Origin: a virus | Taxonomy: Duplodnaviria; Heunggongvirae; Uroviricota; Caudoviricetes | Reading direction: 5' to 3' (one strand) | Virus record (IMG/VR): IMGVR_UViG_2861053794_000004 | Span: 1 to 39,474 of that record | DNA length: 39,474 nucleotides | In this document: positions 29,308-29,365 of the stretch, one piece after another | Layout: the number at the start of each line of letters is the position of its first letter | Numbering within the stretch: the first letter of the stretch is position 1 | Notes under the pieces: model-generated | What the model saw: the letters and a program-made list of their open reading frames with translations, nothing else | What the model was told of the DNA's origin: nothing | The model's database searches: none | Position numbers and translations under genes: made by a program

Positions 29308-29365
29308 CTCTTACTGTAGGGGTAAGAGGATTTTACTATTTTTCTCGCTGTAGGGGTACACGAGA
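29308..29365. repeat. Two hairpins carrying the same CTGTAGGGGTA loop sequence
   Basis: Direct repeats at 29314-29324 and 29348-29358 inside stems CTCTTAC/GTAAGAG (29308-29328) and TCTCG/CGAGA (29343-29365). Confidence 0.6.

Follow-up and report, generated by a model that had tools for sequence, protein, structure and literature searches.

Two copies of the 11-mer CTGTAGGGGTA lie upstream of a gene that is read against the early-left operon of a lambdoid prophage. The prophage is IMG/VR virus record IMGVR_UViG_2861053794_000004, whose 39,474 nucleotides were all analysed and are called the window below; its early-left operon is on the plus strand. We find that the repeat sits in a widespread prophage cassette, known first from P22 and lambda, that combines the promoter of an exclusion gene with a structured antisense RNA on the opposite strand. 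The reading we favour, and consider fairly probable, is a two-strand cassette of the sieB/sas type: a minus-strand promoter would be opposed by a silencing, sas-like antisense RNA, one hairpin of which (hairpin 2) would offer a second pairing site, while a pseudoknot would protect the 3' end. The first-pass annotation of this DNA had marked a two-hairpin region at 29308-29365. The elements of the cassette are as follows:

28803-29297, minus strand: controlled gene, 164 aa, ATG at 29297-29295; PHROG family phrog_1244, function unknown
29298-29323, minus strand: putative 26-nt 5' untranslated region (ACCCCUACAGUAAGAGAGUGAUUUAU), containing the ribosome-binding site AAGAGAG
29308-29328, plus strand: hairpin 1 (CUCUUACU / GGGUAAGAG), from RNA folding and a scan for terminator-like hairpins
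29314-29324, plus strand: motif copy 1 (CTGTAGGGGTA), exact match, aligned with P22 L004:1201-1210
29330-29335, minus strand: -10 hexamer TAAAAT of a sieB-type promoter, homologous to the -10 end of the annotated P22 promoter
29342-29366, plus-strand (early-left) RNA: hairpin 2, UUCUCG-C-UGUA [GGGG] UACA-CGAGAA
29348-29358, plus strand: motif copy 2 (CTGTAGGGGTA), exact match, also seen in the fold and in covariation, inside the annotated P22 promoter region
29366-29397, plus strand: H-type pseudoknot, directly 3' of hairpin 2

Two motif copies that evolve together

An exact scan of the plus strand located the two copies 34 bp apart, start to start, and found no third in the whole window when one mismatch was allowed. 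Shuffled sequences held 0.13 matches on average, and none of 100 shuffles held two or more, which bears out the repeat described in the first-pass annotation. Both copies are invariant in an alignment of the window with lambda, P22 and HK620, and the bases flanking copy 1 differ in the same alignment.

We collected variants of the element in two ways. A search for the motif pair gave 46 distinct variants from IMG/VR, with five coding-repeat false positives removed; a second collection, independent of the motif, used a pattern in the downstream stem and drew on species-representative genomes as well as IMG/VR. The spacing of the copies is 33-34 bp in nearly all variants. One IMG/VR locus (L346) carries a 10-bp tandem duplication (two units of GATTATACAG) between the copies, which takes the spacing from 34 to 43 bp and doubles the -10 region of the minus-strand promoter.

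The two copies are coupled in evolution, each locus keeping its own pair. Among lineages of Enterobacterales the motif varies, and the copies inside one locus are mostly identical or one position apart. Thus CTGTAGGGGT is present twice per locus in E. coli and Salmonella, TTGTAGGGGT in Photorhabdus, CTGTTGTTGGGGA in Trabulsiella and its relatives, and TTGACTGTGGAA in Proteus, Providencia and Mixta; other lineage-specific alleles (TCGTTGGGGA, TTGCATTGGGG, TTATGTTGGGG and TTGCTGGGG) likewise each occur twice in their own locus. Three closely related loci, L250, L321 and L363, have nearly identical flanks and show parallel differences of two to three bases in both copies. For 36 distinct copy 1/copy 2 pairs, identity was 9.8 of 12 positions within a locus versus 6.5 of 12 between loci, and none of 10,000 permutations gave a within-locus identity as high, with a statistic that ignores shared ancestry. 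Some loci have two differences between their copies, and in Xenorhabdus the copies have diverged: at L150, L178 and L269 (for example TTGACTATGGAA versus TTAATTACGGTAA) the hairpin and the pseudoknot are retained.

Hairpin 2 is a real hairpin of the plus-strand RNA

Both stems proposed in the first pass fold as RNA hairpins, but its placing of the 11-mers in loops has to be revised for hairpin 2, where most of the supposed 13-nt loop is paired and only GGGG is left unpaired. Its stem has 10 bp, is interrupted by a single bulged C and is capped by a GGGG tetraloop. Copy 2 takes in that C, the upper part of the 5' arm (UGUA), the loop itself and the start of the 3' arm. Comparison of variants establishes it as a real RNA hairpin of the plus strand. 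With 28 diverse variants aligned without gaps, pairing holds in 90.5% of cells, against 37-58% when the 3' partners are slid. Changes on both sides are seen in eight of the nine pairs, the covariation score was reached by none of 500 shuffles, and the GGGG loop is invariant across variants. The comparison suggested by the first-pass annotation, a search for compensatory stem changes around an invariant loop, is therefore positive for hairpin 2.

The structure belongs to one strand. Its plus-strand version is the more stable in 35 of 36 distinct variants (mean -8.6 versus -5.3 kcal/mol), because many of the pairs are G-U, and the minus-strand version disappears entirely in several lineages. Thermodynamic z-scores for the 117-nt stretch are modest (-1.3 on the plus strand, -2.2 on the minus strand), and we have therefore built the case on comparative data, not on folding energy.

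Hairpin 1 behaves differently. Its loop is of 5-7 nt, or 5 nt in the fold that pairs 29308-15 with 29321-28 in an 8-bp stem, and it folds at -10.5 kcal/mol with a z-score of about -3 in the variant shared by the window and HK620, versus -2.8 kcal/mol in lambda. It is also terminator-like, because AUUUUACUAUUUUU directly follows the stem on its 3' side. The hairpin is strong only in the variant of the window, HK620 and HK446; with a family mean z of -0.8 and no counterpart in lambda, we rejected it as a conserved family structure, and for hairpin 1 the first-pass reading does not stand.

A conserved pseudoknot adjoins hairpin 2

The first-pass annotation saw two hairpins only and missed a conserved H-type pseudoknot immediately 3' of hairpin 2, present in a single copy in the window. 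Its stem S1 pairs ACCAC (29366-70) with GUGGU (29381-85), its stem S2 pairs the loop segment GCCUG (29374-78) with a downstream CAGGC (29393-97), and its linker L3 is A-rich (UAAAAGA). Pairing extends to 95.4% of cells, against 22-42% when partners are slid. Compensatory variants include GCCGGG/CCCGGC (at three loci, with different S1 stems), CGGG/CCCG and ACCUCA/UGAGGU, and others replace a pair by G-U (GCUUG/CAGGC and GCCUG/CAGGU). Among 32 distinct variants collected by the motif alone, 31 contain the pseudoknot, versus 6% of shuffles.

The fold at 29366-29397 resembles the preQ1-I riboswitch and the T4 gene 32 leader, with a 5-bp first stem, a loop pairing downstream and an A-rich linker. 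Unlike these, it has no covariance-model match: Rfam, whose families include C4, preQ1, IsrK and DicF, gave no hit at the gathering score in the whole window and none in 29300-29400 at E-values up to 10. It also differs from such small H-type RNAs in its variable position relative to downstream plus-strand genes. The ACCA that follows hairpin 2 recalls a tRNA-like substrate of RNase P, an idea we rejected: this ACCA is part of S1 and covaries, and so is not a conserved CCA.

The region is homologous to the sieB promoter region of P22 and lambda

Alignment shows the region to be, at the sequence level, the homologue of the sieB promoter region of P22 and lambda. Positions 29295-29400 are 99-100% identical to HK446, HK620, HK629 and HK630, and 29314-29398 are 87% identical to P22 and lambda over 85 nt. 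In the four-way alignment of the window with HK620, P22 and lambda, 29347-29396 is invariant save for one P22 transition. The sieB start of P22 was reportedly mapped by Ranade and Poteete in 1993, who are said to have identified the lambda promoter by homology.

This homology brings out a feature that the first pass had overlooked: the two copies coincide with the start site and the -35 region of the mapped P22 sieB promoter. The 'sieB RNA start site' of the P22 RefSeq annotation aligns with the last T of copy 1, so that the mRNA would begin with ACCCCUACAG; the complement of copy 1 forms these first 10 nt. The annotated P22 sieB promoter (L004:1217-1247) covers the homologue of copy 2, which places copy 2 at its -35 end, and on the minus strand of the window copy 2 is likewise at the -35 position. 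From the P22 annotation and the -10 geometry, the minus-strand mRNA of the window phage would start at about 29323, with TAAAAT (29335-29330, minus strand) lying 6 nt before this putative start. The geometry is general: in a tally of 64 long-type (two-copy) variants, about 59 have a -10-like hexamer 5-7 nt upstream of the base that precedes the C-run of copy 1, in forms such as TATAAT, TAAAAT, TAAACT and TATATT.

In P22, sas is a 105-nt cis-antisense RNA that switches the translation of sieB (PMC12197685); according to reviews, it blocks SieB synthesis and frees the phage from its own exclusion. In a 2026 small-RNA study a 127-nt read cluster, 'P22A-sas', antisense to sieB, was found in infected cells only, at 1321 reads per million (RPM) (PMC13397905, Table 2). 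The printed sequence begins opposite the AUG of sieB, takes in both copies of CUGUAGGGGU as well as hairpin 2, and extends 17 nt beyond the pseudoknot (PMC13397905). An abundant RNA of the corresponding sequence therefore exists in P22 infection, and its strand is the plus strand of the window. Sequence identity together with RNA covariation suggests that a stable antisense RNA is also made from the early-left strand of the window phage.

The cassette and the sieB-sas region of P22 and lambda are homologous in sequence, and the motif copies, the pseudoknot and hairpin 2 are all invariant among them; both lie in the slot that separates the N region from ral/cIII, with the same gene orientation against early-left and the same geometry of -10 and start. 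They differ in that hairpin 1 is much stronger here and in that the cargo is a PHROG 1244 gene. It is because of this different cargo gene that the cassette of the window does not control a sieB/esc pair: SieB of P22 and lambda match phrog_1301 and phrog_6399, whereas the protein controlled here matches phrog_1244. It is 27% identical to HkaP of HK620, a 'putative superinfection exclusion protein'. As the product is not SieB, the SieB-to-Esc translational switch is not obviously applicable. The gene has an in-frame ATG, Met23, preceded by GGAGG at 7-nt spacing (29229-29243, minus strand), which recalls sieB/esc. Close relatives of the gene do not share this internal start and have Lys or Ser at the codon, so the resemblance is probably coincidental.

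Our full-text literature search for the motif returned only the P22 small-RNA paper (PMC13397905), where it passes without comment. In the literature searched, a co-evolving repeat and a pseudoknot are not described for sas; the 1993 papers may already note the repeat. Three features appear to be undescribed: the co-evolving hairpin that matches its target, the pseudoknot on the 3' side, and the ability of the cassette to travel with different genes (see below).

The cassette is widespread and precedes unrelated genes

Of 5426 complete E. coli genomes, 1753 had a match to positions 29340-29400, which extended over at least 80% of this stretch in 1027. A genome scan with the pseudoknot pattern gave mostly chance hits outside Enterobacterales, and we filtered it by requiring a downstream S2 partner. 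The genuine cassette hits are limited to Enterobacterales, where they include Escherichia, Salmonella, Klebsiella, Enterobacter, Citrobacter, Kluyvera, Trabulsiella and Proteus, and further Providencia, Photorhabdus, Xenorhabdus, Mixta and Rahnella, among others.

A minus-strand gene always begins just left of the element, with the same geometry. These genes belong to at least seven unrelated PHROG families, which argues that the cassette is portable. The cargo seen across loci L001-L363 comprises two SieB types, the coiled-coil phrog_1244, phrog_8894 of about 90 aa, small CxxC proteins and several other small proteins of unknown function. Most cargo genes are without a known function and are therefore candidate exclusion or defence genes.

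There is also a short type, with a single hairpin between the minus-strand start codon and the pseudoknot, in SfV, Klebsiella phages, several enterobacterial genomes and the e14 element. In e14 of E. coli K-12 (L249:1119-1533) the pseudoknot of this short type lies upstream of the minus-strand gene ymfI, at a site that bears no annotation. Short types have an extended -10-like sequence, TGGTATGCT, on the minus strand at the edge of the pseudoknot.

Position of the cassette in the early-left operon

The features around the cassette in the window are the following:

26964-27194, minus strand: cro-like open reading frame (ORF)
up to 27981, plus strand: cI-like ORF
28243-28686, plus strand: ORF in the N position, 147 aa, phrog_13686, function unknown
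28688-28705, both strands: bidirectional terminator-like hairpin, between the preceding ORF and the 3' end of the minus-strand gene
29508-29525 and 29546-29565, plus strand: two terminator-like hairpins just upstream of cIII; the homologous pair in HK620 is tL2A and tL2B
29598-29732, plus strand: cIII (PF08134, E-value 2e-30)
30259-31170, plus strand: large early-left ORF, RecT-like by eye

The cassette, with its gene read against early-left, thus occupies a slot between the N region and cIII, a layout that matches HK620, HK446, P22 and lambda. Early-left transcripts can reach it only by reading through the terminator-like hairpin at 28688-28705. In HK620 a terminator, tL1, is annotated at the equivalent point of the operon, beyond the N gene, though inside hkaP. 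The ORF in the N position has no Pfam hit; its arginine-rich segment SSRRRQASRARQ might be the sign of an N-like antiterminator that starts internally. Beyond the cassette, 29403-29597 is a separate mosaic block common to HK97, HK106 and mEp235, with an inverted repeat (GTGTATTCA-N10-TGAATACAC) at 29420-29447 followed by the hairpin pair at 29508-29565.

A model for the two-strand cassette

What might a repeat of this kind recognize? The two segments are identical, not complementary, on one strand, as they would have to be if both match a third sequence, for which the mRNA 5' end is the natural candidate. Since this 5' end is the complement of copy 1, it can also pair with the 5' arm and loop of hairpin 2.

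In the model we propose, the 11-mers are parts of a control cassette of roughly 110 bp that works on two strands. On the minus strand, a sigma-70 promoter with the -10 hexamer TAAAAT and a weak -35 overlapping copy 2 would serve in the lysogen, where the prophage-expressed gene at 28803-29297 would be transcribed from within copy 1, at about 29323. On the plus strand, early-left transcription would cross the cassette after reading through the terminator at 28688-28705; if antitermination is needed as in lambda, this would happen only in lytic growth or superinfection. The plus-strand RNA would be antisense to the leader, the ribosome-binding site and the start codon, and would continue into hairpin 2 and the pseudoknot. 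It would pair with the mRNA and stop its translation, as described for P22 sas, so that the phage's own lytic cycle would escape the exclusion function. We infer such silencing of the gene at 28803-29297 by analogy with P22. The proposal of the first-pass annotation, a sequence-specific nucleic-acid recognition element on the early-left transcript that controls the adjacent minus-strand gene, holds up in this model.

Hairpin 2 would act as a second, structurally presented nucleation site, with its G4 loop as a toehold for the 5'-CCCC of the mRNA. When the two were cofolded, the mRNA 5' end was predicted to open hairpin 2 at a net -12 to -17 kcal/mol, with the G4 loop paired to 5'-CCCC, which is consistent with a second pairing site for the mRNA 5' end. 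The pseudoknot, stacked on hairpin 2, would most likely fix and protect the 3' end of a processed antisense RNA that has no terminator of its own.

A related arrangement is found in IS10, where the 5' end of RNA-IN can pair with the RNA-OUT hairpin, both at its loop and along one side of its stem; there too the target mRNA starts within the region that encodes the antisense hairpin loop. Unlike in IS10, with which we see no sequence relation, the recognition sequence recurs here in a separate, second hairpin with a pseudoknot after it, and the antisense RNA probably comes from a long operon transcript, not from a promoter of its own. The c4 RNA of P1 and P7 and the CI RNA of P4 are short structured phage RNAs that are cut from longer transcripts and involve repeated complementary sequences. 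In those systems the repeats are in the target, whereas here they are in the regulator, and the cassette has no Rfam C4 match.

Several observations weigh against this model. A single hairpin is enough for the short type of SfV, e14 and the Klebsiella phages. At L289, L263, L300 and L287 a mismatch of copy 2 with the mRNA is tolerated, and at three Xenorhabdus loci the copies have diverged. The controlled gene is not sieB and lacks a conserved internal 'esc' start. The cis-antisense copy, already a perfect complement of the mRNA, seems to make a second pairing site redundant. Finally, the 105-nt sas could instead end at hairpin 1.

A bolder extension, which we offer tentatively and think rather unlikely, is that hairpin 2 and the pseudoknot form a lineage-specific 'address' module, with the G4 loop and 5' arm matched to the start of the exclusion-gene mRNA of the prophage, the motif alleles (such as CTGTAGGGGT, TTGACTGTGGAA and CTGTTGTTGGGGA) being traces of a race in RNA specificity.

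Alternative explanations

Could the copies be DNA operators, direct repeats 34 bp apart, near the -35 and the start site, that bind one protein, a repressor or activator of the promoter? The -35 and +1 positions are typical of repressors, a spacing held at 33-34 bp would suit such a protein, and a protein co-evolving with its sites would also keep the copies alike. This co-evolution would have to be rapid, however, since the motif shifts by several bases between nearly identical flanks in the close relatives L250, L321 and L363. The unrelated downstream genes and differing annotated repressors also leave no linked candidate for the protein, and the surroundings of copy 2 covary as a one-strand RNA stem with G-U pairs, which is not expected of a DNA site. 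We regard operators as improbable. CI, Cro or the gene's own product, named as ligands in the first pass, are unlikely too, since the genes behind the cassette are unrelated and the phages that carry it have different annotated repressors.

We give about the same low credence to alternative folding, in which copy 1 and copy 2 would compete for the 3' arm of hairpin 2 and the mRNA, by binding copy 1, would decide whether the pseudoknot and hairpin 2 form. In most lineages outside E. coli the repeat spans the whole 5' arm, so that copy 1 could pair with the 3' arm, and the transition cases L289, L263, L300 and L287 still allow this pairing through G-U; such cases are nevertheless expected if hairpin 2 is the only constraint on the drift of copy 2. 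The window type offers only 4-5 bases of copy 1 (CUGUA), against which the local hairpin, at -8.5 to -9 kcal/mol, would win both kinetically and thermodynamically. Competition also leaves the conservation of the G-run (the loop) in copy 1 unexplained.

A still smaller chance goes to the repeat being a relic, an old 34-bp tandem duplication of a promoter-leader hairpin that was kept as a mosaic-junction linker for lambdoid recombination. Its units do look paralogous, with CUCU/AGAG and CUCG/CGAG stems at a period of about 34 bp; forms with a single hairpin exist, and homology to other phages ends just left of the cassette, beside the start codon. A relic would not be expected to keep a 10-13-mer identical in both copies where the remainder of the unit has diverged past recognition, nor to change the motif in parallel in several lineages, and the compensatory changes in hairpin 2 and the pseudoknot point to selection on RNA.

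Least probable of all is an element acting on early-left transcription itself, be it nut/put-like, as the first pass suggested, or a terminator made of hairpin 1 and its U-run: the element is indeed on the early-left transcript, hairpin 1 with AUUUUACUAUUUUU fits the terminator pattern, and a hairpin with a pseudoknot could in principle touch RNA polymerase, but hairpin 1 is not conserved, its U-run is merely the complement of the -10 hexamer, 29300-29400 has no Rfam match, the co-evolving repeat is left unexplained, and the element lies downstream of the N-position ORF (28243-28686) and the terminator and is common to lambda, P22 and HK620, which have different N/gene 24 proteins and repressors and each their own annotated nutL elsewhere. 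A nut site would have boxA/boxB ahead of the first terminator, with a boxB hairpin loop that is particular to each phage and is bound by its own N protein. HK022 put consists of two stem-loops close behind the early promoter, which act on RNA polymerase in a phage without N; the different position and the presence of our element in N-dependent phages make a put-like role appear unlikely, without direct comparison to put sequences.

Other candidates were discarded on simpler grounds. A LexA box does not fit (CTGT-N8-ACAG), the E. coli-type motif has no GGA for CsrA, and the loops are not self-complementary, as kissing of identical loops in the guanidine-II style would require. A plus-strand promoter between the copies would have no hexamers conserved across lineages, a second minus-strand promoter starting in hairpin 2 would have GGTTCT or GGTTCC as its hexamers, and no start codon follows AGGGGU for a Shine-Dalgarno-like role on the plus strand.

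Implications for prophage exclusion genes

An exclusion or abortive-infection gene must not block the lytic cycle of the very prophage that carries it, and sas of P22 is the textbook, though little-studied, answer to this need. The cassette described here is not tied to sieB and has a match in roughly one in three complete E. coli genomes. If the two-strand model holds, it would provide a general rule for the silencing of prophage cargo genes on induction, and a compact, portable antisense module that is a candidate new RNA family for annotation. Should the 'address' extension also prove true, the portable cassette would give self-immunity to any cargo gene placed behind it, and the race in RNA specificity would decide which incoming phages switch off the exclusion or abortive-infection gene of which resident prophage.

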